Source: a virus
Taxonomy: Duplodnaviria > Heunggongvirae > Uroviricota > Caudoviricetes
Length of the DNA stretch: 64,000 nucleotides
Direction: 5' to 3' (one strand)
IMG/VR virus record: IMGVR_UViG_2721755712_000001
The stretch's first letter is position 1. The number at the start of each line of letters is the position of its first letter. The translations under genes and the position numbers were made by a program. Of the stretch, positions 3,661 through 64,000 are shown piece by piece. The notes beneath the pieces were generated by a model. It saw only the letters and a program-made list of their open reading frames with translations, had not been told where the DNA came from and searched no databases.

Positions 3661-5728
<2,068 letters not shown>

Positions 5729-11039: not shown

Positions 11040-14000
11040 TCAGTTACTTGTTGCCCCAACAGTACCGGCAAATTTCAGCCATTGACCTGACGGACTTCTA
11101 TTACTGCGGTAGTGATAAACGAGGATTGCGTTTGTCACTCCACCGTAATCAGCTTTATGTGACGTTGTTAAACGAATTGTATAATCACCGTTAGGTAGAT
11201 TAAAAACTTCGATTATAGATTCTGCTAATTCTACAGCACCAAATCCCGTTATATTGTTGATACTGCCAGCATTGAATCCCATAGCATCGCCAAAGCCAAT
11301 CCAATATCTTTTGCTAAACGCCCCATTTGATTTAAGGTGGCTAATGAATGTGGACAAACTCATGCCCATATCCCCACCTGAAATAGAGGAAGTTCGCACA
11401 GTCATGCTTGGAAGAGCACTGCTCTTCACATAGGAACTTAGAAGATTCGTTACCTCTGTTTTCGTATAAGCATTAAGGTTAGCCGCAGTCAAAGTAATAT
11501 CGGCAGAGCCATCAAACGCCACACCAGCAATTTTCCTTGCTGTCTGCAATTTTGTGGCGGTTGCTGCATTGCCAGTTGTATTCTGATTGCCAGTGGCATT
11601 CACACCAGGAATGGAGTCCCTTGATGTATATACCTGCGCCCACGCTGACCATGCCGCATCTGTGGTATCTCTTCGTGAGCGAATGAAAACTGGCGCATGT
11701 GCACCGCTCGTACCACTCCAGCCAATAAGCAACTCGCCCTCACCAGCAGCACTCGCACCTTTCATGTGCAATACGTTGCCATACGTGGTCGGGTAGCTAG
11801 TGCTGTACGCCTCGTACATTTGAATGCCAGCAGTGCCTTGAGTAGAGCCGCTTAACGCCGTAACTCGGCCACGAGATACCAATGTATTAATATTGATATC
11901 GCCTGAACCATCAAACTTAACACCATTGATGTTTCTCGCTGTTTGCAACTTCGTAGCAGTAGCCGCGTTGCCCGTTGTATTCTGATTACCTGCCGTATTT
12001 ACACCAGGCAAATTTATGTTCGCAGATCCATCGAAGGCCACGCCGCCGATAGTTCTTGCAGTCTGCAATTTCGTTGCTGTAGCAGCATTTCCTGAAAGAC
12101 TTGAAATAAATGGATGTGAACAGTAATAACCTCGTCCATTTTTAAAGTCCAAAATTATCTGTGCATTCGTACTTTCTGATAAAGGATCAGTTGCCCCCCA
12201 CTTATAAGTGGTTTGACCAACTGCATAATCAGCCGTTGGAACAATTACGTTCAAGCCCTCCTCAGCAAATATCTTGATAGGGAATGCTCTGGCTTCAACG
12301 TAAAATACACTACACAAATCGTCATCTTTCACACTTGAAATAATCGAGTGTATAGCTCGCTCAGCAGTAGAATATATTGAGAAAAAACCAGCCGCATATG
12401 AACCGCGATCAGACCAACCGCCAGGCATAACAAACCCATTAAATTCACAATTATTCATGGCGTATCCGCCAACTGAGGAACCAGTAGTTATCACAACTCG
12501 TGAGGCTAATTCATCGGTACTGCCTCTAGATCGGCGAAAGACTATAGGATACCACTTACCGCTTACTGCATTTGCAGGCGCTGAAAAAGTGTATTTTCTC
12601 ATCCCTTTTTTATTGTCTATTTCGCTTTTGCTGTATACGTCAAGGTTCGCAGGAGTCAGCGTTATGTCCGCAGAACCATCAAACTTAACACCGTTGATTG
12701 TACGCGCTGTCTGTAGTTTTGTAGCGGTTGCAGCATTGCCGGTAGTGCTCTGATTACCAGCCGTATTAACACCTGGCAAATTAATATTCGCAGTACCATC
12801 AAAGCTCACGCCGCCGATAGTTCTTGCCGTCTGAAGTTTTGTAGCAGTTGCAGCATTACCAGTGGTGTTCTGATTACCCGTAGTATTTACACCTGGAAGG
12901 TTGATATTTGCAGAACCGTCGAAACCAACTCCACCGATAGATCTTGCCGTCTGCAATTTCGTTGCTGTACTTGCATTACCATTTAATGTTCCGGTGATAC
13001 CACCAGTAACAGACAACGGACCTGAAACTGTTCCTCCGGTTGTTGGCAGTGCTCCAATATCTAACGGCGTCGGTTTCTGATGTGTGCTATACATCGTATA
13101 AACAACACCATCGGTAACGCTGGAAGGCTTACTCGCTGAATATGTTGGCGATGTATAAATAGAAACTGACGCATTTGCAGTACAATCCCAATGGATATTT
13201 ACACTCGTCGCATAATTGCCAATTTCAACGTAAATATCATATGTATCGCCGGATGTGTTGATCCAGGCGAAATTCGCTAATCCGACAGCTGTACGCTTCC
13301 ACAAAGCACCTGTAATTCCTTTGGGGTTTCCATTGCCTGCTCGTAGAACCAGTTCTGAAATGCCTGCCTGATGTGGGGAACCGACGTTGTAACCAGCGCC
13401 ACCAATCAATGCGATGTAAACGATGGAACTCGCTTGTGGCATGGTAACCGTAGCCAGTTTGAACCACCCTGCCCCGCCAGAGAAAGACATCGTTACTGAA
13501 TTTAAAGTACCAATATCTTTCGGCGTTAATGTGATATCCGCAGTCAGTGCTTTTCCGTTAACTTTTCGGTTAGATGGCACCCTGCTATTCGCATTGTCAT
13601 TGGCTGCTTTAACTGCTTTTGGCGTTGCGGCCAGCGATTCACTGGTGCTGTCGACAGCACTGCTAAGTTTCACAACACCTTTAGTTGTAAGGCTTGCGTC
13701 TTCCATCGCAACTGCACCGGCAATCTCTTCAGCACGATCAGCAGCAGCTTCCGCACGGGTCGCAGCGGATTCAGCAGCAGTTTTGCTCTGAGATGCTGCC
13801 GTCGCACTGCCTGCCGCCTCTGTTGCTTTCGTGGATGCCGTCGTGGCGCTGCCCTTCGCTGCTGACGCCTGTCTGGTCGCCTCATCTTTTGAAGCAGACG
13901 CCGATGATGCCGATGACGCCGCCGAACTGGCGGACGATGCGGCTGCCGTTTTTGAGGATTCTGCACGGTTTTCCGACGCTTTCGCGTTCGTTTCGGATGT

Positions 14001-15068
14001 CTTCGCTGCGGAAGCAGACCTCGCTGCTGCGCTGGCCTGTTCAGTGGCTTGGCCAGCCTTCGTTGTGGCTGTTGAAGCAGACGATGCGGCACTTTCTGCC
14101 GATTTTCCGGCGGCGGTGGCACTGGCTGAGGCCTGCCCGGCACTTGTTGACGCGGCACTGGCAGACGACGCAGCCGCTGTTTTTGAGCCTGCCGCAGCCG
14201 AGGCGCTCTGTCCCGCTGCCGTTTCAGAAGACCTGGCGTTCGTCTCGGACGTTTTTGCCGCCTTCGCGGAATTTCCTGCCGCCGTTGCCGAGGAAGCGGC
14301 ATTACTGGCGCTCGAGGCTGCGCTCGTTTCTGATGATTTCGCTGCCTCTTTTGAGGCCGCCGCATCCCGGGCTGAGGTGGCAGCTTCTGACGCCTTCGTG
14401 GTCGCGGTGGATGCAGAAGTGGCTGCAGATTTTTGTGACGCTGCAGCATTCGTTTCAGATTTTTTCGCAGCAGTTGCACTCGCACTTGCGGCACTTTGTG
14501 AGGATGCCGCAGCGGATGCACTTTGAGACGCTTGAGAGGCTTTTTCTCCAGCGGCATTGGCGCTTTTTGCTGCTGCGGCAGCACTGGCCGCCGCCTCACG
14601 AGCTTTGTCGCCAGCAGCATCAATCGCGTCAGTGTTATTTTTATACCACTCAACGTTTTCGTTGTGCTCGTTGACGATCTGCATTAGCGGCTTAACGGTC
14701 ACTTCTGTACCGTCTTCACGCTCGATTGTCACCTCATCCAGCGCAGTCAACCAACTGCGTATGGACTTGGAATCAGCCGACATACGCGACATTAGCGCAG
14801 TAAAGCGCGCGCTAAACTGTGTTAAGTCGCCTTCATAGGTCGTAATGATTCGGCACGGAACCTCAGACTGAGTTTCGCCGGTATAAGGTTCTGAGAGAAC
14901 AATATTCGTATCGCTTATTACGCGCTTGATCTCGTACAGCTTATTGTCGGGGCCAATGACGATCATCCCCGGCAACACACCATTAGCTGTTACGTTCCAG
15001 GCTGTCCCTGCCCCAACCAGAGTATTGCTACCCTGTGTAAATGTGATAGTACCTTCCCTGTACCACAT
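11040..15068 (-). CDS. side tail fibre protein (lambda Stf-like) with Ala/Ser-rich region and tandem Phage_fiber_2-type repeats
   Basis: 1342 aa; long Ala/Ser-rich tract resembling the lambda Stf conserved region (as recalled); at least 5 copies of GN.ATATKLQTAR.I.GV.FDGS..I.LPGVNT. Confidence 0.85.
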   Translation of the reverse strand: MWYREGTITFTQGSNTLVGAGTAWNVTANGVLPGMIVIGPDNKLYEIKRVISDTNIVLSEPYTGETQSEVPCRIITTYEGDLTQFSARFTALMSRMSADSKSIRSWLTALDEVTIEREDGTEVTVKPLMQIVNEHNENVEWYKNNTDAIDAAGDKAREAAASAAAAAKSANAAGEKASQASQSASAAASSQSAASASATAAKKSETNAAASQKSAATSASTATTKASEAATSARDAAASKEAAKSSETSAASSASNAASSATAAGNSAKAAKTSETNARSSETAAGQSASAAAGSKTAAASSASAASTSAGQASASATAAGKSAESAASSASTATTKAGQATEQASAAARSASAAKTSETNAKASENRAESSKTAAASSASSAASSASSASASKDEATRQASAAKGSATTASTKATEAAGSATAASQSKTAAESAATRAEAAADRAEEIAGAVAMEDASLTTKGVVKLSSAVDSTSESLAATPKAVKAANDNANSRVPSNRKVNGKALTADITLTPKDIGTLNSVTMSFSGGAGWFKLATVTMPQASSIVYIALIGGAGYNVGSPHQAGISELVLRAGNGNPKGITGALWKRTAVGLANFAWINTSGDTYDIYVEIGNYATSVNIHWDCTANASVSIYTSPTYSASKPSSVTDGVVYTMYSTHQKPTPLDIGALPTTGGTVSGPLSVTGGITGTLNGNASTATKLQTARSIGGVGFDGSANINLPGVNTTGNQNTTGNAATATKLQTARTIGGVSFDGTANINLPGVNTAGNQSTTGNAATATKLQTARTINGVKFDGSADITLTPANLDVYSKSEIDNKKGMRKYTFSAPANAVSGKWYPIVFRRSRGSTDELASRVVITTGSSVGGYAMNNCEFNGFVMPGGWSDRGSYAAGFFSIYSTAERAIHSIISSVKDDDLCSVFYVEARAFPIKIFAEEGLNVIVPTADYAVGQTTYKWGATDPLSESTNAQIILDFKNGRGYYCSHPFISSLSGNAATATKLQTARTIGGVAFDGSANINLPGVNTAGNQNTTGNAATATKLQTARNINGVKFDGSGDININTLVSRGRVTALSGSTQGTAGIQMYEAYSTSYPTTYGNVLHMKGASAAGEGELLIGWSGTSGAHAPVFIRSRRDTTDAAWSAWAQVYTSRDSIPGVNATGNQNTTGNAATATKLQTARKIAGVAFDGSADITLTAANLNAYTKTEVTNLLSSYVKSSALPSMTVRTSSISGGDMGMSLSTFISHLKSNGAFSKRYWIGFGDAMGFNAGSINNITGFGAVELAESIIEVFNLPNGDYTIRLTTSHKADYGGVTNAILVYHYRSNRSPSGQWLKFAGTVGATSN

Positions 15069-25400: not shown

Positions 25401-27035
25401 CATCTGGCTGCCTGCGCCAACTACCCCCATGATCCCTGCTCGCATCAGTTTGAACGCAACCATCGCGGCCACGACCTTACCGAGATTAATCACCAGCTCT
25501 TGGTTCTTTGCTAACCATTGAGCAAGCTGACGCAACCCATCGATTGCCGTTGTTAACCCCGAACCTAAAGAATTGGCAAACGAAATCCCTTCGGCGCTAT
25601 TCATGATTGAAGCCAGTTCTTTCATCCCCTTCGATAGAGAATCCAGATATCCGGCCTGACCAACCCGATCAGCAAATAACGAGAATGACGTCTGAAGTTG
25701 CGCCAGCGCACCTGTGTAGGTTTGCATCATGTCTTTCGCTGCGTTCTCATTCTCCGCACGCAGACCAACAAACATCAGAGACAACGCCTGTTTTGCCTCA
25801 ACCATACCGCTGGCAACGGCTTTAGTCAGTTCCCCCATAGTGATGCCTGCGGCGTCTGCCATTGCCTGCATCGCGTTAGGAACGGCTTCACCTAATTGCT
25901 GACGTAGCTCTTCCATTGACACAACGCCCTTACCGGACATCTGCTGAACGGCCACAGCCGCACGTTTCAACAGCTCACTATCACCACCAAAACGAGCAAC
26001 GGAGTCCACCAGCGCCTTCAGAGAACCATCGGTTGGATCTAAGCCAGCAGAACGAAACTTCACGAAGGAGTCTGTTAACGCCTGCATCGCGAACGGCGCA
26101 TTTTGAGCCATGTCTACGATGTACTTCATATCATCAGCGGCAGCCTGGCCCGGGTTGGACTTCTCCTTATTCAACCCTCGAAGCATCACCCGCATACGTT
26201 CCATTTCGGCCGCAGCTTCAACAATAGGCTTCTGCCACCCAAACATGATGTCAGTAACCGTTCTGGCTGCATCTCCGATCTCGCCAAGCAGGAAAATGTT
26301 GCCACGAAGGCCAGAGAACATACCTCCTTCGTTACTTTTACCGCTATGGCCAGAAGCGCCGCTACGCCGCCCGCTACCACCATCGCCACTTCCAGATGTA
26401 CGAACGCGTACCGGCTTGCTAATCAGTTGCTGACGTCCGATAACTTCGTCCATCTGCTCACGAACCTTTTTCAGTCCCTCGGCAGCCTGACTCGTTGTGA
26501 CACCCCAATTACTGAGTCGCTTCGTCGTGGTATTAAGGCGCGTATTCATGCCACTCACGGACGCAGAGGCTTCTTTGACCTCCGTACCAAAGCGGCTTGC
26601 GCTTTTGCTTGCATAGGTCGCCCAATCAGAGAAATCATTTAGCTCTGATTGCACTTTACGTAATGACGCGGTGAGTTTATCTACTGAAGAAGTTGTCGTA
26701 TCGACGCGCTCAATCAGGGCTTTAAGACCAGAATTGAGGCTGGTGATGTTGCCACGCATTTTACGCGTAGCATCTGAAGCAAGCTCAAAACCGGCAGCTA
26801 CATCCTGTAGTTTATCTGCCGTAGAATCGAGCTTGCTTTCCAGAACGCCAATGATACGGGCGACCGAACCCAAAGAGCGTTCAAAGGTTTGGATTTTTTG
26901 AGCAGGCTTTGTTACCTGCTCACCAAATCGAGTAAGCAGTTTCCCCGCACGATCGATTGACGCTGTAAACTGTTTGTCTTCCAGCGACAGGATAAACTCT
27001 ACGTTTTGTGACATTCCCTTGTCATCCTCTGCCAA
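22437..27035 (-). CDS. tail tape measure protein
   Basis: 1532 aa; long coiled-coil-like and Gly/Ala/Ser-rich hydrophobic stretches; sits between the G/T-like chaperone genes and gpM-like gene. Confidence 0.85.
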   Translation of the reverse strand: MAEDDKGMSQNVEFILSLEDKQFTASIDRAGKLLTRFGEQVTKPAQKIQTFERSLGSVARIIGVLESKLDSTADKLQDVAAGFELASDATRKMRGNITSLNSGLKALIERVDTTTSSVDKLTASLRKVQSELNDFSDWATYASKSASRFGTEVKEASASVSGMNTRLNTTTKRLSNWGVTTSQAAEGLKKVREQMDEVIGRQQLISKPVRVRTSGSGDGGSGRRSGASGHSGKSNEGGMFSGLRGNIFLLGEIGDAARTVTDIMFGWQKPIVEAAAEMERMRVMLRGLNKEKSNPGQAAADDMKYIVDMAQNAPFAMQALTDSFVKFRSAGLDPTDGSLKALVDSVARFGGDSELLKRAAVAVQQMSGKGVVSMEELRQQLGEAVPNAMQAMADAAGITMGELTKAVASGMVEAKQALSLMFVGLRAENENAAKDMMQTYTGALAQLQTSFSLFADRVGQAGYLDSLSKGMKELASIMNSAEGISFANSLGSGLTTAIDGLRQLAQWLAKNQELVINLGKVVAAMVAFKLMRAGIMGVVGAGSQMVSTFATMATAIQTPFNLGATAVTRFNRAARMGLAPIPSLIFAIRGAITGLKGAFAGLTAFIAANPIGFVFTAAMTAVAGLITYMTMLRSETSKVVDEIRKIPEAMTAAKRAQMAEYKARLEQQITQKEQELKSGEKVVYGPGMAGTTVKINHDERKRIENELNELRKKRDETNETIARGDLAVAKRLAKETAESQIEKILEENRDFAATFVKARQEALEKIQKIKDDGSLSDDEKNKLLAPLRETVNKSYLEPAQKLVDSLSSRKNATEKQIATLNDQLEKAKKEGNTEQIQKLQGSIRGYQEHLEVVAQELTQAEFKRDNAAKSGNGLVSINGDVLGLGTTDKAAQKALAQYMRNQMDSATYQRTLPDGTPMMDFEGKPIIGPKQLKTQLNLQKASSASSLEKMSDEERAAAIAALTKAREQDAAAAEKAAQRSANASQRAAKKEQAAQQKLAAGYQKALDKADQLMGQMGESSKATVSFDQSLRDTTKSLTDLANAVPNEFITQEMIDKAKKRLEDLKNATPEYREMFNRRNVEQMISTWAPKADSIISAGYTPSREDKVADFEDTYNRNLKALIELRDKASDPKVVALYTKKINQLIAAGNTALIKETGTATQKLALEYENLAEQIESTWTDLFSGLTDVLTDFVINGKMSFSSLSQSILKDITNMVVKSQITLPLMNMLGMGATAAGSSQSGNLLTGVASAVANQGVRISNTVNGDKSVGEATKETSSSVTGLGQTTQQTTSAIGTATNAIGSWVSGLFDSTEAKDAETKAVKDSIFSMQNLSSVTGALSAAFAMLGANASGSGNKWLNFGATVASGLVSVWASGGFDGLMSGSSGSTSGFNNLTSSAADGTNGIPAIPKFANGGIFGKDGVIPLRAYQKGGIANSPQLALFGEGDMNEAYVPLPDGRTIPVTLSTDGMSGGGNVLSPVSIEINVHSDGSTTESGDTESIWNNAAQRMKAIALETIAQEKRPGGSLNPNTQRN

Positions 27036-43753: not shown

Positions 43754-44554
43754 TTATTCTTCTGGTGGCACGACAAAATCATCGAGCTTATTCTTTTCGT
43801 CTCGAAGCAACTTGATTTCTTCTTCTGTTATACATTTGTCATAATCTGTTTGTTCAGAATGGCACAGTGTAACCGCGAATGGATAGCCGGTATAAGACAG
43901 TCCCCTAACAGGTTCTAGTTCACCGTTGTCTTTTTTCCTAAATTTGTAAAAGTCAGGAGTGTCATAATTGGTGACGCTAACAAGAGCATATTTATCATTT
44001 TCTCTTGCATACACTTCACTAACACCTCTCGATTCGCCCAACTCTCTACTCACATATGTCGAATCACTTGCAGCATCAAACACAGCCTGACCTAATGGAG
44101 TTTTTTTTAAATCATCTATTTTCTCTTTTTCCTTCCTGATTTTAGATTCGTTTTCCAGATAAAGTTTCACACCGTTTTCTTTGCATGCTAGATTTTGGCG
44201 TTCAAAACGTAATCGTTCTCTTGCCGAGTTGGTACTTTTATCCATTGTAACGAATACAATCGGGTTACGTTCACGAACATCAAAGATGTGCGCATTGAAT
44301 GCGGTCGCACCTGTATAGGCATTCAAGACGTTTTTGCCATTCACCTCTCCACATACCATATATGAATAGCTATTTTCACCTAACTGAATAGCTCGCATAT
44401 TCGTGAACCGACCAGCATCAGGATCTAGCAGTGTAGAGCGAATATCCTTTTCAACTAGATCTATGGCTCGCTCTTCGTCAGAATCACAACCTGTTAATAG
44501 TAAAGCCGCTATTAACAATGCTAATGAGTATTTTTTATTCACCCCATTCTTCAT
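43754..44554 (-). CDS. lipoprotein (signal peptide + lipobox LLTGC)
   Basis: MKNGVNKKYSLALLIAALLLTGCDSDE...: basic n-region, hydrophobic core, lipobox; 12-bp-stem terminator downstream at 43661-43700. Confidence 0.6.
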   Translation of the reverse strand: MKNGVNKKYSLALLIAALLLTGCDSDEERAIDLVEKDIRSTLLDPDAGRFTNMRAIQLGENSYSYMVCGEVNGKNVLNAYTGATAFNAHIFDVRERNPIVFVTMDKSTNSARERLRFERQNLACKENGVKLYLENESKIRKEKEKIDDLKKTPLGQAVFDAASDSTYVSRELGESRGVSEVYARENDKYALVSVTNYDTPDFYKFRKKDNGELEPVRGLSYTGYPFAVTLCHSEQTDYDKCITEEEIKLLRDEKNKLDDFVVPPEE

Positions 44555-51703: not shown

Positions 51704-52894
51704 TCAAACATCCCCGTTCTTAATCCACTGCCTGACTTGCTCGTCTTGTGCGACTTCTTTCTCATGTTTGGCAATATACAAGTCTGGCAATAGGGGTGGA
51801 GCGAATTCAGGCTCTGTCGCACGCCACTTTTCATATGCGTCACGCATGGATTTCTCAACATTCCAATGCTCCAACTCTTGGTATTCAATCGGCCAGTTAT
51901 CCTGCAATCTCTTCACTGCATTAGCCAGGTCGTATCGGAAGTAAGGATTAAGACCAATGAAATTACCAGCCAGCATGTCATCAACCTCCTTCACTCTGGC
52001 AATCTTAGAAAACTTACCAATAGCAATGTTGAGGTCCCAATCTGACACGAACAACAAAAGTGCTGCAAATGCCAGAAACTTAGCTTCCCCGTATGCTCTG
52101 TCGCTAACCGTTTTTGTCTGAAACTCAATGTAATTGCCCATCACAAAACTAGTAAGCTTACAGGTCTTACTTATCTCGTCCTCCAAATGCGATGGATCGA
52201 GAATTGTGCGGTCACGATTATTGTTTATGTGTTCTAAGATTACAGCAATGTCTCTATGTGAGACTGAAATTTCACGCAATTGCTGGAGAGTCTTGATGTG
52301 AACTCTTAGCACCTCTTTGTCAATCGCACGCTTCCAAGAAAAACCAGGCACAGTAACCTGAATGGGCGCGAAAGGTAGAATATCAGGAGTTGTCCATGCT
52401 AGATATGCATCACGTAACCCACTAATATAATAAAGCCAGTCTAAATGCTCGCTTTCTAACCATATTTCAAATGTGGAATCCTTTCGCTTATTGAAGAACC
52501 ATTCCCTCATCTGCCACATTTTTTCTTGAGTAAATATCCCTTCCTGTATGCCGGCACAGACCAGCTTTCGTATTACCTGCGAATACTTTGTTCGATCTTT
52601 TGTGAATGAGACAAGGTGCTGCTTCACCTCAGATGTTAGTCTATCTCCATAGAAATCACATGATGGATGATGGCCTTGACCATCTTCACCGGTAAATCTG
52701 AAATGCGCCTTCTTGTGATAGCCACCATTCCTAGTGGCTCTAACGAACGAACCACCTCCAACTTTGCAAATGGGGCAGATGATATCGTCACGGGCAATAG
52801 CATGAACCGAGCTGTCATCTAAATTCTTTAGCGCCAAGTACTGCTCAGGATCGACTTCTTTTTGTAACGATTTTGAAAAAGCGGTATCAGTCAT
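51704..52894 (-). CDS. hypothetical protein with N-terminal Cys/His zinc-ribbon-like motif (candidate replication initiator or DNA-binding protein)
   Basis: CPICK...HHPSC cluster near N-terminus; ~396 aa from ATG 52892-52894 (GGAG RBS); directly adjacent to the iteron/GT-rich region. Function inferred from context only. Confidence 0.45.
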   Translation of the reverse strand: MTDTAFSKSLQKEVDPEQYLALKNLDDSSVHAIARDDIICPICKVGGGSFVRATRNGGYHKKAHFRFTGEDGQGHHPSCDFYGDRLTSEVKQHLVSFTKDRTKYSQVIRKLVCAGIQEGIFTQEKMWQMREWFFNKRKDSTFEIWLESEHLDWLYYISGLRDAYLAWTTPDILPFAPIQVTVPGFSWKRAIDKEVLRVHIKTLQQLREISVSHRDIAVILEHINNNRDRTILDPSHLEDEISKTCKLTSFVMGNYIEFQTKTVSDRAYGEAKFLAFAALLLFVSDWDLNIAIGKFSKIARVKEVDDMLAGNFIGLNPYFRYDLANAVKRLQDNWPIEYQELEHWNVEKSMRDAYEKWRATEPEFAPPLLPDLYIAKHEKEVAQDEQVRQWIKNGDV

Positions 52895-53064
52895 TCCAAG
52901 CTCCGAGCAAGGGGTTATTTGTTCAATTATCATTCGGAATTATTTACTGTCTCGCCCAGTTTCACGTCATTTTATTCCCTAGTCTAGCTTTTCTAGGGTA
53001 TACAGCTTATTACAAGCTCCTCATTATTAACTGTTTCCGTAACTCATTGATCCGCTTATACACT

Positions 53065-53525: not shown

Positions 53526-55559
53526 TTACTTAACCTGGTGGCCAGGTTTAGCACCAGCATCCGGGCTTAACAGGAAGATATCTTTCCCGCCGGGGCCAGC
53601 AGCCATCACCATACCTTCGGAGATGCCGAAGCGCATCTTACGCGGAGCCAGGTTAGCCACCATAATGGTGTGACGACCAATCAGTGCCTGTGGGTCTGGA
53701 TAAGCAGAACGGATGCCTGAGAAGACATTGCGTTTTTCACCGCCGAGATCCAGCGTCAGGCGCAGCAGTTTGTCAGAACCTTCAACAAACTCTGCGTTTT
53801 CGATCAGTGCCACGCGCAGGTCAACTTTGGCAAAGTCGTCAAAGGTGATGGTTTCCTGAATCGGGTCGTCTGCCAGCGGGCCAGTAACTGGCGCGGCAGT
53901 AGCTTTCACTTCTTCTTTAGACGCTTCCACCAATGCTTCCACCTGTTTCATGTCGATACGGTTATACAGTGCTTTGAACGGATTCACTTTATGGCCCAGC
54001 AGCGGTTGCTGGATGCCATCCCAGGTCAGTTCCGTATTCAGGAATGCTTCCGCACGTTCTGTCAGTTTCGGCAGTACCGGTTTCAGGTAAGTCATCAGCA
54101 CGCGGAACAGGTTGATGCCCATTGAGCAAATCGCCTGCAGGTCAGCATCGCGACCTTCCTGTTTTGCGACTACCCAAGGAGCCTGCTCGTCGACATAGCG
54201 GTTAGCCAGGTCAGCCAGTGCCATGATTTCACGGATAGCTTTACCAAATTCGCGGCTTTCCCACGCTTCACCAATCACTTCAGCGGCATCAGTGAAGGTT
54301 TTGTACAACTGCGGGTCAGCCAGCTCGCTTGCCAGCACACCGTCAAAACGCTTATTGATAAAGCCAGCGTTACGGGACGCCAGGTTAACCACTTTGTTCA
54401 CGATATCGGCATTCACACGCTGAACGAAATCCTCCAGGTTGAGATCGATATCATCAATGCGCGAAGAGAGTTTCGCAGTGTAGTAGTAACGCAGGCTGTC
54501 AGCGTCAAAATGATTCAACCAGGTGCTGGCTTTAATAAAGGTGCCGCGAGACTTGGACATCTTCGCGCCGTTCACCGTCACATAGCCGTGAACAAACAGG
54601 TTGGTCGGCTTGCGGAAGTTGCTGCCTTCCAGCATGGCAGGCCAGAACAGGCTGTGGAAGTAAACGATATCTTTACCGATGAAGTGGTACAGCTCGGCGG
54701 TGGAGTCTTTCTTCCAGTATTCATCGAAGCTGGTAGTGTCGCCGCGCTTGTCGCACAGATTCTTGAAGGAACCCATGTAGCCAATCGGTGCGTCCAGCCA
54801 GACGTAGAAATATTTACCCGGCGCGTTCGGAATTTCAAAACCGAAGTAAGGTGCGTCGCGGGAGATATCCCACTGTTGCAGACCAGATTCAAACCACTCC
54901 TGCATTTTGTTTGCCACCTGCTCCTGCAACGCACCGCTGCGGGTCCATGCCTGCAACATTTCGCTGAAAGAGGGCAGATCAAAGAAGAAGTGTTCAGAAT
55001 CACGCATTACCGGGGTAGCACCAGAAACCACCGATTTCGGCTCGATCAGTTCAGTCGGGCTGTAGGTCGCGCCGCAAACTTCACAGTTATCGCCGTATTG
55101 ATCTGGCGCTTTACATTTCGGGCAGGTGCCTTTCACAAAACGATCCGGCAGGAACATGCCTTTTTCCGGGTCGTACAACTGAGAGATAGTGCGATTTTTA
55201 ATAAAACCGTTCTCTTTCAGGCGAGTATAGATAAGCTCAGACAACTGACGGTTCTCTTCGCTGTGCGTCGAGTGATAGTTGTCATAGCTGATGTTAAAGC
55301 CTGCGAAATCAGTCTGGTGTTCCTGACTCATTTCGCCAATCATCTGCTCCGGTGTGATACCAAGTTGCTGTGCTTTCAGCATGATCGGCGTACCGTGGGC
55401 ATCGTCGGCACAGATGAAATTAACCTCGTGGCCGCGCATTCGCTGGTAACGAACCCAGACATCAGCCTGGATGTGCTCCAGCATATGGCCGAGGTGGATT
55501 GAGCCGTTAGCGTACGGCAGCGCGCACGTCACCAGAATTTTCTTCGCGACTTGGGTCAT
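53526..55559 (-). CDS. metG: methionyl-tRNA synthetase
   Basis: 677 aa from ATG 55557-55559 ([29 protein letters not shown]...); HIGH-type and KMSKS motifs; matches Escherichia-type MetG as recalled. Confidence 0.97.
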
Positions 55560-55716
55560 AGTAGGCATTACTTCTTTGTAGTGAAAAGGGGCTTGATAGT
55601 AACAAAATGGCCTTATGTCTGCCATGTGATAACAGCATTTCTCATAAATGATTAAATGTCGCAGCTGGAGTACACTACAAGGCGACAATTGCGCAAATTA
55701 AAATAAAGGAGACGGG

Positions 55717-56817
55717 ATGAGCGAGTCCAAATCGCCGGATGCCCTGAGAGCAATGGTAGCCGGTACGCTGGCTAATTTTCAGCACCCAACCCTGAAACAC
55801 AACCTGACTACGCTTAAAGCGTTACACCATGTTGCGTTGATGGATGACACACTGCATGTCGAACTAATCATGCCTTTCGTGTGGAATAAGCCTTTTGAAG
55901 ACCTGAAAGAGCAATGTAGTGGTGATCTGCTCCGTATCACTGGCGCAAAGGCTATTGACTGGAAGCTGTCGTACAACATTGCCACGCTTAAGCGCGTCAA
56001 AAACCAACCAGGCATTAATGGTGTTAAGAATATTATCGCCGTAAGCTCAGGCAAGGGCGGTGTAGGCAAATCGTCCACAGCAGTAAACTTGGCACTGGCT
56101 TTGGCTGCTGAAGGTGCGAAAGTTGGTATTTTGGATGCCGATATCTATGGTCCATCAATTCCAACCATGCTGGGCGCGGAAAACCAACGTCCAACCTCAC
56201 CTGACGGTACTCACATGGCACCTATCATGTCTCATGGCCTGGCAACCAACTCTATTGGTTATCTGGTCACCGACGACAATGCAATGGTGTGGCGTGGACC
56301 GATGGCCAGCAAGGCGCTGATGCAGATGTTGCAGGAAACTCTATGGCCTGATCTGGACTATCTCGTTCTCGATATGCCGCCGGGCACTGGTGATATTCAG
56401 TTGACGCTGGCGCAGAACATTCCTGTAACTGGTGCGGTTGTGGTAACTACGCCGCAAGACATCGCGCTGATCGATGCGAAGAAAGGCATTGTGATGTTCG
56501 AAAAAGTCGAAGTGCCGGTACTGGGTATCGTCGAAAACATGAGTGTGCATATTTGCAGTAACTGCGGTCATCACGAGCCAATTTTTGGCACCGGTGGCGC
56601 ACAGAAACTGGCCGAGAAATACAACACGCAGTTGTTAGGCCAAATGCCACTTCATATCTCTCTTCGTGAAGATCTGGATAACGGAACACCAACCGTTATT
56701 AGTCGTCCAGATAGCGAATTTACGGCTATTTATCGTGACCTCGCAGATCGCGTTGCTGCCCAAATGTATTGGCAAGGTGAAGTAATACCTGGCGAAATCG
56801 CATTCCGCGCAGTGTGA
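55717..56817 (+). CDS. apbC: Fe-S cluster carrier ATPase ApbC/Mrp
   Basis: 366 aa; Walker A SGKGGVGKSS; C-terminal CxxC (CSNCGHHEP); divergent from metG as in enterobacterial chromosomes. Confidence 0.95.
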   Translation: MSESKSPDALRAMVAGTLANFQHPTLKHNLTTLKALHHVALMDDTLHVELIMPFVWNKPFEDLKEQCSGDLLRITGAKAIDWKLSYNIATLKRVKNQPGINGVKNIIAVSSGKGGVGKSSTAVNLALALAAEGAKVGILDADIYGPSIPTMLGAENQRPTSPDGTHMAPIMSHGLATNSIGYLVTDDNAMVWRGPMASKALMQMLQETLWPDLDYLVLDMPPGTGDIQLTLAQNIPVTGAVVVTTPQDIALIDAKKGIVMFEKVEVPVLGIVENMSVHICSNCGHHEPIFGTGGAQKLAEKYNTQLLGQMPLHISLREDLDNGTPTVISRPDSEFTAIYRDLADRVAAQMYWQGEVIPGEIAFRAV

Positions 56818-56820
56818 TAA

Positions 56821-56845
56821 AAAGGCGGTGCATTGCACCGCCTAA
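56821..56845. terminator. bidirectional terminator between apbC and the umuD'-like gene
   Basis: GGCGGTGCA-T-TGCACCGCC hairpin flanked by A-run and T-containing flank. Confidence 0.55.
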
Positions 56846-56854
56846 TCAGTTCTC

Positions 56855-57244
56855 CTACATCACGGGACAATCATCAAACTCGCCACTTCTTGCGTCGTTG
56901 ATAATGTGAGTGATCACACCAAACACGGCATTGCTGCTCGTGCATCCATCGTCATCCTTTGGCAATGCTTCCTTCTTACCGGTTCTTAAATCCTCCAGAT
57001 GCTGACGTGGATACTTCCGGTATCTTTTTACGCGATATTCCCCATCCAGAGCGCATACAAGCAGAGAACCATCAACCGGGGTAAGTGAGGAATCGACCAC
57101 CAGCAATGCACCCTGTAATATTCCCTCACGATGATGACTATCAGCTGCCCTCATGAAGTAGGTCGCTGAAGGATGTCTAATTATCTGCTGATCAAGAGAA
57201 ATACGGCTCTCAGCATAATCCGCCGCAGGAGAAGGGAAGCCCAT
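56855..57244 (-). CDS. UmuD'-like S24 peptidase-family protein (begins at the position equivalent to the UmuD autocleavage site; no umuC partner)
   Basis: MGFPSPAADY... aligns with UmuD from Gly25 onward as recalled; Ser (AADSH) and Lys (EYRVKRYRK) at the expected catalytic positions; LexA box 19 nt upstream; divergent extended C-terminus. Confidence 0.65.
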   Translation of the reverse strand: MGFPSPAADYAESRISLDQQIIRHPSATYFMRAADSHHREGILQGALLVVDSSLTPVDGSLLVCALDGEYRVKRYRKYPRQHLEDLRTGKKEALPKDDDGCTSSNAVFGVITHIINDARSGEFDDCPVM

Positions 57245-57262
57245 AGCGTTTTCACCTCAGAA

Positions 57263-57282
57263 TACTGTTTATCCATACAGTA
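57263..57282 (-). promoter_or_regulatory. LexA (SOS) box TACTGTATGGATAAACAGTA upstream of the umuD'-like gene
   Basis: CTGT-N8-ACAG matching the SOS-box consensus TACTGT(AT)4ACAGTA; GAGGTGA RBS between box and ATG. Confidence 0.7.
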
Positions 57283-57408
57283 TACATTAAAGATGCTTGA
57301 AGTGTGCAATAGCGCGATGCTTTGCGCTCGCCTGGTGGTGCGTTATTTTTTGGCTATATCTTCTTTCTGATATACCGGATCGTTTCCTTTTGGCAGCAGG
57401 AGGCTTAA

Positions 57409-57594
57409 CTACCGGTAGTGCCGTAGCCGTTCCATGAAATAGGTGCGCAGGTTCTCAGGTTGCTCACGGGCTAGCTGTTCCGCTATGACGGGTATGTTCA
57501 ATCGCTCTTTGTAGGCAACCCCCCTGGCAGCCAGGTCAACGTTAACTTTATTCCTTTCTTCCTGGCTTTTGGCTGCTATGTTCCAGTTGCTCAT
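57409..57594 (-). CDS. hypothetical small protein (61 aa)
   Basis: ATG 57592-57594, 2 nt after the stop of the upstream small ORF; charged/helical composition. Confidence 0.3.
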
Positions 57595-57596
57595 GT

Positions 57597-57812
57597 TTAA
57601 GGCTCACATTTCCAGATGGTATTCTGAACACCCGAACCGGGCGTAAGATGAGGGTTAGCGTTCGCACTATGCTGATATACAGCTTTGGACTTTCCATATT
57701 GCTGACAGGCTTTATCTGCGGTTTTTTGCAGGCAGTCCAGCCCATACCAGCCATCTGACTGGATGCTAACATTTTCGCCGTCATTGTATTGCACCATCGC
57801 ACACCCAGACAT
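57597..57812 (-). CDS. hypothetical small Cys-rich protein, possible lipoprotein remnant
   Basis: In-frame upstream extension encodes a signal-peptide-like stretch ([16 protein letters not shown]) with no in-frame start, suggesting a damaged lipoprotein gene. Confidence 0.25.
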
Positions 57813-57945: not shown

Positions 57946-59508
57946 ATGAAAATGACAAGTATTCAACAACGTGCAGAGCTTCATCGCCAGATCTGGCAAA
58001 TTGCTAACGATGTCAGGGGTTCAGTCGATGGATGGGATTTTAAGCAGTACGTTTTGGGCGCGCTTTTTTACCGTTTTATCAGCGAAAATTTTTCCAGTTA
58101 TATTGAAGCCGGTGATGACAGTATCTGTTATGCGAAACTGGATGACAGCGTAATTACTGATGACATTAAAGACGATGCCATCAAAACTAAAGGCTACTTC
58201 ATCTACCCCAGTCAGCTTTTCTGCAACGTAGCTGCGAAAGCAAATACTAATGACAGACTGAATGCAGATTTAAACAGCATCTTCGTTGCTATCGAAAGTT
58301 CTGCTTACGGTTATCCTTCAGAAGCTGACATCAAAGGTTTGTTTGCTGATTTCGATACCACCAGTAACCGCCTGGGTAACACCGTTAAAGATAAAAATGC
58401 CCGCTTGGCTGCGGTTCTGAAAGGGGTTGAAGGGCTAAAACTTGGTGACTTCCATGAACATCAGATTGACCTGTTCGGTGACGCCTATGAGTTCCTGATT
58501 TCTAACTATGCGGCGAATGCCGGTAAGTCCGGCGGCGAGTTCTTTACACCGCAGCACGTCTCTAAGCTGATTGCACAACTGGCTATGCACGGGCAGACCC
58601 ACGTTAACAAAATCTACGACCCGGCAGCAGGCTCCGGTTCGCTGTTGTTGCAGGCGAAAAAACAGTTTGATGACCATATCATCGAAGAAGGTTTTTTTGG
58701 TCAGGAAATCAACCATACGACCTATAACCTGGCGCGTATGAACATGTTTTTGCACAACATCAACTACGACAAGTTTGATATCAAGCTGGGTAATACACTG
58801 ACTGAGCCGCACTTCAGAGATGAAAAACCGTTTGATGCCATCGTTTCTAACCCGCCGTATTCGGTGAAATGGATTGGCAGCGATGACCCGACGCTGATTA
58901 ACGATGAACGTTTTGCCCCGGCTGGCGTTCTGGCCCCCAAATCCAAAGCTGACTTTGCGTTTGTATTACATGCGCTGAACTATCTTTCGGCCAAAGGTCG
59001 CGCTGCGATTGTCTGCTTCCCAGGCATTTTTTACCGTGGCGGCGCGGAGCAGAAAATCCGTCAGTATCTGGTCGACAATAACTATGTCGAAACCGTGATT
59101 TCACTGGCACCGAATCTGTTCTTTGGCACCACTATTGCCGTCAATATTCTGGTGCTGTCTAAACATAAAACGGATACCAAAGTTCAGTTTATTGATGCCA
59201 GCGAACTGTTCAAAAAAGAGACTAACAACAACATTCTGACCGATGCTCATATCGAACAGATTATGCAGGTATTTGCCAGCAAGGAAGATGTTGCTCATCT
59301 GGCGAAATCTGTTGCGTTTGAGACTGTTGTCGCGAATGACTATAACCTGTCGGTGAGCAGCTATGTGGAAGCGAAAGATACTCGCGAAATTATCGATATC
59401 GCTGAGCTGAATGCTGAGCTGAAAACCACGGTCAGCAAAATCGACCAGTTGCGTAAAGATATTGATGCGATTGTTGCTGAGATTGAAGGTAGCGAGGTAC
59501 AGGCATGA
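57946..59508 (+). CDS. hsdM: type I restriction-modification system methyltransferase subunit (type IC, EcoR124-like)
   Basis: 520 aa, [26 protein letters not shown]...; N6-adenine MTase motifs (NPPY in SNPPYS, AdoMet motif DPAAGSGS); near-identical to EcoR124I HsdM as recalled. Confidence 0.95.
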
Positions 59509-60752
59509 GCGAGCTGAGTTATCTGGAAAAACTGCTGGATGGGGCTGAGGTTGAGTGGGTAGCATTAAATAAATTAGCAACTTTTTTAAAAGGGAAGTCT
59601 TTACCTAAAGAAAAAATAACTCCAGATGGCAATAGATATTGTATTCATTACGGTGAGCTTTTCACTCATTATGGTCCCATAATTGACAAAGTATGCTCAA
59701 AAACAAACCAAGCAATCAATGAGTCAATTCTATCTGAAAAAAATGATGTTCTAATGCCAACGTCAGACGTTACACCAAGAGGTTTGGCTACAGCTAGTTG
59801 CATTCAAGAAAGTGGCGTTATTTTAGGCGGCGATATTTTGATTATTAGATGCTCTGGTGTTGATGGTAGATATCTAAGTAATTTCATAATAAATAACAAA
59901 AAAAAGATATTGCAAATGGTTAAAGGTTCTACTGTTTATCATTTGTATGCTAAAGATATAGGTAAATTACTTATCCCCATCCCTTGCCCCAACAACCCGG
60001 AAAAGTCGCTGGCTATCCAGTCTGAAATCGTCAGGATTCTGGATAAATTTACTGCGCTTACCGCTGAGCTTACCGCTGAGCTTAGCATGCGTAAAAAACA
60101 ATACAACTACTATCGCGACCAGTTGTTGAGTTTTAAAGAGGGTGAGGTTGAGTGGAAAGCTTTGGGGGAAATTGGTGAAGTTCGTATGTGTAAACGAATC
60201 CTAAAATCACAAACATCTTCTGAGGGAGAGATTCCATTTTATAAAATTGGGACATTTGGTAAGGAACCCGATTCCTATATATCTAGAAAACTATTTAATG
60301 AATTTAAAGAAAAATATAGTTATCCTAAAGTTGGCGAAGTATTGATTTCTGCCAGTGGGACCATCGGCAGGACTGTTATATTTGATGGTAGGGAATCATA
60401 TTTCCAGGATAGCAATATTGTCTGGATTGAAAATAATGAAAAAATAGTTTTAAATAAATATTTATTCTATTTCTATAAAATAGCAAAATGGGGAATATCT
60501 GAAGGTGGAACTATTAAAAGACTTTATAATGATAACTTAAGAAAACTTATGATACCAGTACCATTTCCTGATTCTCCTGAAAGATCGCTAGTTGAACAAC
60601 AAAAAATAGTGAAATTACTGGATAAATTTGATGCTTTGACCAATTCCATCACCGAAGGTCTTCCGCGTGAAATCGAGTTGCGCCAGAAACAATACGAGTA
60701 CTATCGTGATTTACTGTTCAGTTTTCCCAAACCTGAAACTATCAGTAACTAA
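59505..60752 (+). CDS. hsdS: type I R-M specificity subunit (type IC) with two TAEL repeats in the central spacer
   Basis: 415 aa; two target-recognition domains with AT-rich codon usage; central conserved region with LTAELTAEL (12-bp tandem repeat at 60056-60079); ATGA overlap with hsdM. Confidence 0.9.
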
Positions 60753-60873
60753 TTGACCATTGCTACCGACCGGATCACCTTAACATCCGGTCTATATAGA
60801 GACTATTTTTTACACGCCGGAAGTCGCCCTTAAAGCCCTTCCGGCCCTTGCCAGACGGCACAAAGGATGCGCT

Positions 60874-63800
60874 ATGACTCATCAGACACACACCATTGCT
60901 GAATCCAATAACTTTATCGTTCTTGATAAGTACATCAAAGCCGAGCAAACAGGCGACAGCTACCAGAGCGAATCGGACCTGGAACGTGAACTGATTCAGG
61001 ATCTGCGGAATCAGGGCTATGAATTTATTTCCGTAAAATCTCAGTCGGCGATGCTGGCCAACGTTCGGGAACAGCTTCAGAACCTCAATGGTGTGGTGTT
61101 TAATGACAGCGAATGGCGGCGTTTCACGGAGCAGTATCTGGATAACCCGAGCGATGGCATCCTGGATAAGACCCGTAAAATCCATATCGACTATATTTGC
61201 GACTTTATTTTTGATGACGAGCGTCTTGAGAACATCTATTTGATAGATAAAAAGAATCTCATGCGCAACAAGGTGCAGATTATCCAGCAGTTTGAACAGA
61301 CGGGTTCTCATGCTAACCGTTATGACGTCACGATCCTGGTTAATGGCTTACCGCTGGTACAAATCGAACTGAAAAAGCGCGGCGTGGCGATTCGTGAGGC
61401 CTTTAACCAGATACATCGTTACAGCAAAGAGAGTTTTAACAGCGAAAATTCTCTGTTTAAGTATCTGCAACTGTTTGTCATTTCCAACGGCACCGATACC
61501 CGTTACTTTGCCAACACGACAAAGCGCGATAAAAACAGTTTTGACTTCACCATGAATTGGGCGAAATCAGACAACACGCTGATTAAAGACCTCAAAGACT
61601 TTACCGCCACCTTTTTCCAGAAACATACCCTGCTTAATGTCTTAGTGAACTACAGCGTATTCGATGTTAGCCAAACGCTACTGGTGATGCGACCGTACCA
61701 GATTGCCGCCACTGAGCGCATTCTGTGGAAAATTAAGAGTTCCTTTACAGCGAAGAACTGGTCAAAACCGGAAAGCGGTGGGTATATCTGGCACACTACC
61801 GGTTCAGGTAAAACCCTCACCAGCTTTAAAGCCGCGCGTCTGGCAACAGAGCTGGACTTTATTGATAAAGTCTTCTTCGTGGTCGACAGGAAAGACCTCG
61901 ATTACCAGACCATGAATGAATATAAGCGTTTTTCGCCAGACAGCGTCAACGGCTCGGAAAATACCGCAGGTCTTAAACGCAATCTGGATAAGGACGATAA
62001 CAAAATTATCGTCACCACTATTCAGAAACTTAATAACCTGATGAAAGCAGAAAGCGACCTGCCTGTATACAATCAGCAAGTGGTGTTTATATTTGATGAA
62101 TGTCACCGCAGCCAGTTTGGAGAAGCGCAGAAAAACCTGAAGAAGAAATTCAAACGCTATTATCAGTTTGGTTTTACCGGCACACCTATTTTCCCGGAAA
62201 ACGCCTTAGGCTCAGAAACGACCGCCAGCGTATTTGGTCGTGAATTGCATTCGTATGTAATTACCGATGCGATTCGTGATGAAAAAGTGCTCAAATTCAA
62301 GGTGGACTACAACGATGTGCGGCCACAGTTTAAATCTTTAGAGACAGAAACCGACGAGAAAAAACTGAGTGCGGCTGAAAATCAGCAGGCATTTCTTCAT
62401 CCCATGCGTATACAGGAAATTACGCAATATATTCTGAATAACTTCCGCCAGAAGACCCACCGTACTTTCCCAGGTTCCAAAGGCTTTAATGCCATGCTGG
62501 CAGTGAGTAGCGTGGATGCCGCGAAAGCCTATTACGCGACGTTTAAACGGTTACAAGAGGAAGCAGCTAATAAATCGGCTACCTATAAACCGCTGCGTGT
62601 TGCAACAATCTTCTCCTTTGCCGCCAATGAAGAACAAAATGCCATTGGTGAAATTTCCGATGAAACTTTTGATACCAGCGCAATGGACAGCAGTGCTAAA
62701 GAGTTTCTTGACGCTGCAATTCGTGAGTATAACAGCTATTTTAAAACTAACTTCAGCACCGACAGTAACGGTTTTCAGAACTACTATCGTGATTTAGCCC
62801 AACGGGTTAAAAATCAGGATATCGATCTGTTAATTGTCGTTGGGATGTTTTTAACCGGCTTCGACGCTCCAACATTGAACACGCTATTCGTCGATAAAAA
62901 CTTGCGTTTTCACGGCCTGATGCAGGCATTCTCCCGTACCAACCGCATTTATGACGCTACTAAAACCTTCGGTAACATCGTCACTTTTCGGGATCTGGAA
63001 CGCTCAACCATTGATGCCATAACGCTGTTTGGTGATAAAAATACTAAAAATGTGGTGTTAGAAAAGAGTTATGCTGAGTATATGGAAGGCTTTACAGATG
63101 CTGCCACTGGTGAAGCTAAACGCGGCTTTATGGCAGTAGTTTCAGAACTGGAACAACGGTTCCCTGACCCTGCCAGTATTGAAAGTGAAAAAGAGAAGAA
63201 AGACTTCGTAAAACTGTTTGGTGAATACCTGCGTGCCGAGAACATCCTGCAAAACTATGATGAATTTGCCACGCTGAAAGCCCTGCAACAAATCGATCTT
63301 AGCGATCCTGTTGCGGTAGAAAAATTCAAAGCAGAACATTATGTGGATGATGAAAAGTTCGCTGAATTGCAAACAATTCGTCTCCCTGCTGAACGCAAGA
63401 TTCAGGATTATCGTTCTGCCTATAACGATATTCGCGACTGGCAGCGCCGTGAGAAAGAAGCTGAGAAAAAAGAGAAATCAACCACTGACTGGGATGACGT
63501 AGTTTTTGAGGTCGATTTGCTGAAGTCTCAGGAAATAAACCTGGATTATATCCTTGGACTGATTTTCGAACACAACAGACAAAATAAAGGCAAGGGCGAA
63601 ATGATCGAAGAGGTCAAACGCTTAATTCGTTCAAGCCTGGGGAACCGGGCGAAAGAGGGCCTGGTGGTCGATTTTATTCAGCAAACGAACCTGGATGATT
63701 TACCAGACAAAGCCAGTATCATTGAGGCATTCTTTACGTTTGCTCAACGCGAACAGCAACGTGAAGCAGAAGCATTGATAAAAGAAGAAAATCTCAATGA

Positions 63801-63990
63801 AGAGGCGGCGAAACGCTATATTCGCACGTCTTTAAAACGCGAATACGCCACCGAAAATGGCACAGAATTAAACGAGACATTACCAAAACTTAGTCCGTTA
63901 AACCCGCAATATAAAACGAAAAAACAGACCGTTTTCCAGAAAATCGTCACGTTTATTGAAAAGTTCAAAGGAGTAGGTGGACAGATATAG
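60874..63990 (+). CDS. hsdR: type I R-M restriction endonuclease/translocase subunit (type IC, EcoR124-like)
   Basis: 1038 aa; SF2 motor motifs (GSGKT Walker A, DECHRSQ DEAH-like) and N-terminal nuclease region; length and sequence match EcoR124I HsdR as recalled. Confidence 0.95.
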
Positions 63991-64000
63991 TGTATTAATC

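Follow-up and report, generated by a model that had tools for sequence, protein, structure and literature searches.

The 64,000-nt stretch of viral DNA analysed here (hereafter the window) carries, by sequence comparison, an orthologue of phage P1 humD, an ordinary copy of a gene whose family is already known and has been named by the NCBI annotation pipeline. The coding sequence, taken from the list of open reading frames, occupies positions 56855–57244 on the minus strand and comprises 129 codons plus a stop; the product, which begins MGFPSPAADY, is a UmuD′-like protein of the S24 fold without an N-terminal arm. The gene lies on an SSU5-like phage-plasmid, and we judge it likely, with a probability of about 0.85 and by analogy with P1, that its product would act as an SOS-induced, ready-made UmuD′ working with the UmuC of the host.

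Control region of humD

A 20-bp LexA (SOS) box, recognised by its match to the consensus and by comparison with P1, lies at positions 57263–57282. The box, which is not assigned to a strand and reads TACTGTATGGATAAACAGTA on the minus strand, is palindrome-like and shares 17 of its 20 positions with the consensus TACTGTATATATATACAGTA. No other such match occurs in the 64-kb window, where 100 dinucleotide-preserving shuffles give an expectation of 0; the looser core CTGT-N8-ACAG is found four times (0.77 expected), with the full flanks present only at the humD site. The initial annotation had already pointed to an SOS box, placing it 19 nt upstream of the gene; the box stands, and the gap between its end and the humD ATG is corrected to 18 nt. 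In E. coli umuD, the LexA box likewise precedes the start codon by 18–19 nt.

A σ70 promoter is predicted at positions 57279–57308 (minus strand), composed of the −35 element TGCACA (57308–57303), an 18-nt spacer and the −10 element TATACT (57284–57279), with 9 of 12 consensus matches in a consensus scan. The last four nucleotides of the −10 element fall within the LexA box, and such an overlap is the usual geometry for LexA repression. A DNA alignment indicates that the promoter region is conserved in P1 and D6, and the putative LexA operator sits within it, as the HumD family leads one to expect. In addition, a Shine-Dalgarno sequence, GAGGTG, can be read at positions 57253–57258 (minus strand), 8 nt 5′ of the ATG. 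The 60 nt 5′ of the ATG contain three in-frame stop codons, so no N-terminal extension can be read, and an upstream in-frame start that would restore a UmuD arm is absent.

On the other side of the gene, a terminator scan detected an intrinsic-terminator-like hairpin at positions 56823–56843 (minus strand), with nine pairs, seven of them G-C, followed by TTTTTAT on the humD strand. The scan scores this hairpin on the minus strand only. The gene had been described as followed by a bidirectional terminator and apbC; the hairpin and apbC are both there, the latter convergent with humD and ending at position 56817, but the scan lends no support to a bidirectional terminator.

HumD resembles UmuD′ rather than UmuD or LexA

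The humD product matches the NCBIfam equivalog NF051876, ‘HumD family translesion DNA polymerase’, with 220.9 bits (cut-off 120) over positions 1–129 of 129, and Pfam identifies it as Peptidase_S24. The UmuD subfamily model (NF007621 / PRK10276) gives 87.6 bits, under its cut-off of 110, and the LexA model TIGR00498 gives 27.3 bits against a cut-off of 110.95, over model positions 91–166 only. The best structure match is UmuD′ (PDB 1UMU; residues 2–118, E = 5e-23), and the fold is assigned on the ground that the sequence matches solved UmuD′ structures. An AlphaFold2 model built from a shallow alignment of 102 homologues reached a mean pLDDT of 44.5 and a pTM of 0.31 and was discarded; the alignment is too shallow for AlphaFold2 because all 102 sequences are at least 67% identical.

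Aligned to UmuD from the annotated E. coli K-12 genome, HumD is 44% identical over 115 residues. Specifically, HumD residues Gly2, Ser36 and Lys73 correspond to UmuD residues Gly25, Ser60 and Lys97, verifying the earlier observations that the product starts at the glycine of the UmuD cleavage site and retains serine and lysine at the catalytic positions. RecA-mediated self-cleavage of UmuD leaves Gly25 as the first residue of UmuD′. HumD further shares the GFPSPAADY and VFGV.xH motifs with E. coli UmuD and UmuD′ (PDB 1UMU, 1I4V and 1AY9). The C-terminus had been described as longer than that of UmuD and divergent over 40 residues. It is indeed longer, with 10 residues extending past the UmuD end, but the divergence is restricted to residues ~77–105, which include a 4-residue insertion; the HumD segment VFGVITHIIN aligns to VFGVVIHVVK of UmuD, so that the motif VFGV(I/V)xH is retained.

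E. coli UmuD differs from HumD in having a 24-residue N-terminal arm and in being encoded in an operon with umuC. The features of UmuD proper that are missing from humD here are thus the arm with its Cys/Ala-Gly cleavage site, the umuC operon and a score above the subfamily cut-off. With no N-terminal arm, HumD would have no RecA-dependent activation step.

The Peptidase_S24 match, together with Ser36 and Lys73 at the catalytic positions, could also be taken to indicate an active self-cleaving S24 peptidase or a LexA-like repressor. We assign this reading a negligible probability, since the 129-aa protein corresponds to the C-terminal domain only, with neither a helix-turn-helix DNA-binding domain nor a cleavage-site arm, and since the LexA model score falls far short of its cut-off. 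The family itself argues in the same direction. Among 102 members, the residue at the protease serine position is Ser 58 times, Thr 42 times and Ala twice, and the G-D-S-M motif is degenerate, reading A-D-S-H in HumD here; the catalytic-position lysine is kept in 101 of the 102. The Ser/Thr/Ala variation and the degenerate motif fit a nucleophile that is no longer needed, and the retained Ser and Lys of HumD are probably vestigial. Domain absence, model scores and Ser/Thr variation thus refute both a LexA-like repressor and an active peptidase.

Stand-alone humD is a family trait under purifying selection

Full-length tblastn matches to the humD product were found in the genomes of phages Cyrano (99.2% identity), PhiR41_1 (97.7%), P1, P7 and SJ46 (91.5% each), D6 (89.9%), phiKO2 (71%) and HK140 (66%), with 11 of the 129 residues differing between HumD here and P1 HumD. 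The Nei-Gojobori dN/dS ratio of humD is 0.054 against P1 and 0.081 against D6, at a synonymous divergence of 0.6–0.8, which indicates strong purifying selection on a stand-alone gene and not a remnant. For the surroundings of the gene, we compared 17 other loci, namely those of P1, D6, Cyrano, phiKO2 and HK140 and 12 from Salmonella, Citrobacter and Klebsiella assemblies. A LexA box lies 5′ of the humD homologue in all 17 loci, and a Y-family polymerase gene adjoins it in none (within 4 kb for the 12 assembly loci); the majority of these loci have a divergent dinI there. Moreover, 107 of the 120 best database homologues start with M-G-F-P-S-P.

These data bear on the proposal in the initial annotation that the gene might be a remnant left when an hsd island inserted, and on the reading of humD as a decaying umuDC operon truncated at both ends by insertion of hsd and of apbC-metG. 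The mosaic flanks would suit such a history: lxr of P1 is missing, hot is interrupted by an amber codon, and apbC-metG was captured from a chromosome. The low dN/dS, the open reading frame that is intact and matched over its full length by the family model, the gene's own Shine-Dalgarno sequence and ATG with a conserved LexA box, the shared M-G-F-P-S-P start and the stand-alone layout that is the norm in the family all oppose it, and umuC adjoins humD in no related locus inspected, nor did the 17 loci contain a truncated umuDC operon. A decaying remnant is therefore scarcely credible, and selection, the intact full-length frame and the family-wide layout refute it as an explanation of humD.

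Database homologues of 148–167 aa were considered as longer true proteins and rejected as start-codon miscalls, in which translation of the LexA box yields the additional residues (MYIQYLYC...). Among entries of 148 aa, this extension reads MDIQYLYC, MYIQYLYC or MNIQYLYC and is followed by Met-Gly-Phe-Pro, except in P0062, where it is followed by Thr-Gly. The miscalled ‘HumD/S24 peptidase’ entries, 148–162 aa in length, are P0022, P0023, P0027, P0060, P0062 and P0073, and P0023 alone represents 1430 member sequences. Several HumD family members are named ‘LexA family transcriptional regulator’ in databases.

Comparison with P1 and other UmuD-like systems

The P1 and P7 proteins agree with HumD here in length (129 aa), Met-Gly start and C-terminal tail, at the 91.5% identity given above, and their genes likewise have hot upstream and no adjoining umuC. 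P1 humD also has the same layout of LexA box, spacer, Shine-Dalgarno sequence and ATG, with an identical GAGGTGAAAACGCT-ATG, and the box coincides with the annotated LexA site of P1. The DNA of P1 and the window have two pieces in common, one comprising humD, its box and its Shine-Dalgarno sequence (86% identity), the other hot (89%). P1 differs in that a 573-bp divergent gene, lxr (‘LexA regulated function’), separates hot from the LexA box; lxr is absent here, and the gap between hot and the box is only ~125 bp (57283–57408). P1 further differs in carrying phd-doc downstream of humD, where the terminator and captured apbC-metG are found here, and in lacking the amber codon that truncates hot here. 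It is also a different kind of element, humD here being located on an SSU5-like phage-plasmid whose relative pYLMB30c encodes its own DnaE. Because the element is unlike P1 in these respects (SSU5-like, own DnaE, no lxr), the biological role could differ in detail.

The UmuD-like proteins of the linear plasmid-prophages N15/phiKO2 (gp23) and of HK140 and BTP1, both lambdoid, also fall in the HumD clade, with 63–72% identity, and are encoded by stand-alone genes behind a LexA box; they have a Met/Val-Gly start and an EFDD..P tail. Their genes differ in being accompanied by a divergent dinI, whereas here hot lies upstream on the same strand and dinI is absent. Divergent dinI shares the LexA-box intergenic region with humD in N15/phiKO2-like, lambdoid and other prophages (Klebsiella, Salmonella, Citrobacter). 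In Citrobacter and HK140, an 80-aa open reading frame with no assigned function directly precedes humD. A further set of relatives, mucAB, impCAB, rumAB and samAB, comprises mobile-element-borne, LexA-controlled UmuD homologues for translesion synthesis (PMC7092418). These systems differ in combining a full-length cleavable UmuD homologue with their own Y-family polymerase, neither of which is present on this element.

The window is part of an SSU5-like phage-plasmid

The window is collinear with positions 26610–90308 of the 112-kb E. coli plasmid pYLMB30c, at ~98% identity and with 89% of the window covered, and its structural block shares 81% identity with Salmonella phage SSU5 and 99% with phage Cyrano. 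Plasmid pYLMB30c encodes RepA, ParB, terminase, portal, capsid and tail proteins, as well as DnaE, a 3′–5′ exonuclease, a DnaB-like helicase, NrdAB and thymidylate synthase. Judged by these comparisons, the window belongs to an SSU5-like phage-plasmid of E. coli, with apbC and metG as captured cargo. The collinearity with pYLMB30c and the similarity to SSU5 rule out a chromosomal context with an inserted hsd island.

In agreement with the initial annotation, no Y-family polymerase gene follows humD. A tblastn search of the window with E. coli UmuC gave no match (best E 0.27), and the pYLMB30c annotation contains no Y-family polymerase. Stretches of the window that are absent from pYLMB30c were considered as hiding places for such a gene and ruled out, as their open reading frames are either istA/istB of an IS21 element or have no Pfam match, and none matches a Y-family domain. 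In particular, an IS21-family element at positions 3861–5662, with istA (rve integrase domain) and istB (IstB_IS21 domain), is inserted relative to pYLMB30c, and three minus-strand open reading frames without a Pfam match, of 1342, 266 and 409 aa, occupy positions 11040–15068, 43754–44554 and 51704–52933 in stretches that differ from pYLMB30c. The 1342-aa frame adjoins DNA matching the tail-fibre region of pYLMB30c.

Upstream of humD, positions 57409–57594 (minus strand) encode hot, a homologue of the θ subunit of Pol III (Pfam DNA_pol3_theta, 1.3e-28). Codon 62, which is CAG in P1, is the amber codon TAG here, and the resulting stop at positions 57409–57411 leaves 61 aa instead of 83/87. The reading frame past the amber codon is still P1-like LSLLLPKGNDPVYQKEDIAKK, and pYLMB30c carries the same 186-nt hot CDS annotation. 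A 71-aa open reading frame without a match in Pfam or NCBIfam, at positions 57597–57812 (minus strand), stops 3 nt short of the hot start codon; pYLMB30c has no annotation for it.

Beside humD, positions 53526–56817 contain a complete pair of metG and apbC/mrp. The pair is 88.3% identical in DNA to K-12 mrp-metG over 3298 bp, with homology ending at the gene ends, and the MetG and ApbC/Mrp proteins are 98.8% and 94.8% identical to those of K-12. The phage-plasmid thus bears an additional, conserved copy of an essential aminoacyl-tRNA synthetase gene, apparently under purifying selection. The pair is also found in phage Cyrano and in pYLMB30c.

A type I restriction-modification locus spans positions 57946–64000 in the orientation opposite to hot and humD, with hsdM at 57946–59508, hsdS at 59505–60752 and then, by comparison with pYLMB30c, hsdR; hot lies between this locus and humD. 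According to the P1 record, the sequence that directly follows humD there (phd-doc) has 98% identity to the region upstream of the EcoDXXI hsd locus of a conjugative plasmid. Taken together with the hsd genes near humD here, this identity suggests a recurrent association of humD cassettes with type I hsd loci.

The C-terminal tail of HumD

In addition to the 4-residue insertion, HumD is set apart from UmuD by a 10-residue acidic tail. The family-specific segment DARSGEFDDCPVM, comprising HumD residues 117–129 (DNA positions 56858–56896), is absent from UmuD. Among the 102 homologues, residues 122–128 of the tail end, ...GEFDDCPVM-COOH, are 92–100% conserved, and 98% of the homologues end in a hydrophobic residue; EFDDCPVM is thus more conserved than the former catalytic serine position. 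The tail resembles the tip of E. coli SSB, DFDDDIPF, in register from the C-terminus. The SSB tip docks many genome-maintenance proteins. On the strength of this likeness, the HumD tail might be a linear motif that engages, or competes for, SSB-binding partners or replisome subunits, an idea that we hold to be rather improbable; if true, it would give phage HumD a function beyond replacing UmuD′. In the literature, nothing relevant was found on a link between SSB and the HumD or UmuD tail.

A related question is whether HumD works mainly with the replication proteins of its own element, DnaE, the 3′–5′ exonuclease and Hot, instead of UmuC, the acidic tail mediating the contact. The umuD gene products of E. 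coli are known to bind Pol III subunits, hot is a neighbour of humD in P1, in D6 and here, the relative pYLMB30c encodes both dnaE and the exonuclease, and the highly conserved tail is reminiscent of the SSB tip. However, hot is amber-truncated here, most family members reside next to dinI in lambdoid or N15-like prophages without hot or dnaE, and the SSB likeness is a short acidic motif that may be due to chance. We therefore regard a main role with the element's own replisome as very unlikely.

HumD as a probable partner of host UmuC

Cooperation of HumD with host UmuC is the reading that we favour. The GenBank record of P1 annotates humD with ‘DNA repair; functionally complements E. coli UmuD′’ and describes the LexA site as lying ‘in the regulatory region of lxr and humD’. 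The work of McLenigan et al. 1999 (J Bacteriol 181:7005), going by its title, reportedly identified P1 HumD as able to replace UmuD′ functionally in SOS mutagenesis. The same role of P1 HumD is cited elsewhere (PMC7092418). The function proposed here thus rests on the P1 GenBank note, the 1999 title, secondary citations, two later papers and the biology of UmuD′2C, and substitution for UmuD′ with host UmuC, known for the P1 orthologue only, is extended to this element by analogy. A partner is available, since 5422 of 5426 complete E. coli genomes contain umuC.

On this basis, we propose the following mechanism. In the undamaged cell, host LexA would occupy the 20-bp box, which overlaps both the −10 hexamer and the region where transcription starts, and keep humD silent. 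Upon DNA damage, RecA-stimulated cleavage of LexA would derepress humD, and HumD would be made directly in the UmuD′ form. Since it starts at the glycine that is exposed in UmuD only by RecA-mediated cleavage, no processing step should be needed. The earlier interpretation of HumD as a pre-processed, SOS-induced protein is upheld, given its start at the UmuD′ glycine behind a LexA box. By further analogy with P1 HumD and with UmuD′2C, HumD would dimerise and associate with chromosomal UmuC in a translesion polymerase of the Pol V type, which may assist the copying of damaged DNA, whether of phage-plasmid or host, and increase SOS mutagenesis.

The initial annotation had instead suggested that a protein of this kind, without a polymerase, could be a decoy or regulator. 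HumD would then activate no polymerase but titrate RecA filaments, host UmuD or LexA, for example through heterodimers with UmuD, and so tune the SOS response for the element. Heterodimers do form among the umuD gene products; the element carries no polymerase partner, and the divergent pairing with dinI, which encodes a modulator of RecA filaments, in many prophages suggests a small SOS-modulating module. We found no positive evidence for such a role. The characterised P1 orthologue, 91.5% identical, is described as a functional stand-in for UmuD′, recorded as complementing it and facilitating SOS mutagenesis, and the near-universal host umuC places a partner at hand. We thus consider a decoy function unlikely, while noting that the decoy and UmuD′-substitute roles are not mutually exclusive.

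Discussion

Little in the gene itself is new, as the feature was described for phage P1 in 1999. The comparison adds that humD and hot are transferred jointly, as a cassette, among phage-plasmid families that are unrelated (P1-like, D6 and SSU5-like); the phage-plasmid survey of Pfeifer et al. contains no discussion of SOS or UmuD functions of SSU5-type elements. It also reveals that some database entries for HumD are mis-started, with the LexA box translated, or mis-named as LexA repressors.

Of 5426 complete E. coli genomes, 1384 have a match to the 1251-bp humD-hot stretch, in most cases on a plasmid. A damage-inducible UmuD′ exempt from the RecA cleavage checkpoint may therefore be present in many strains. 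Such a checkpoint-free UmuD′ could affect mutation supply under DNA-damaging antibiotics.
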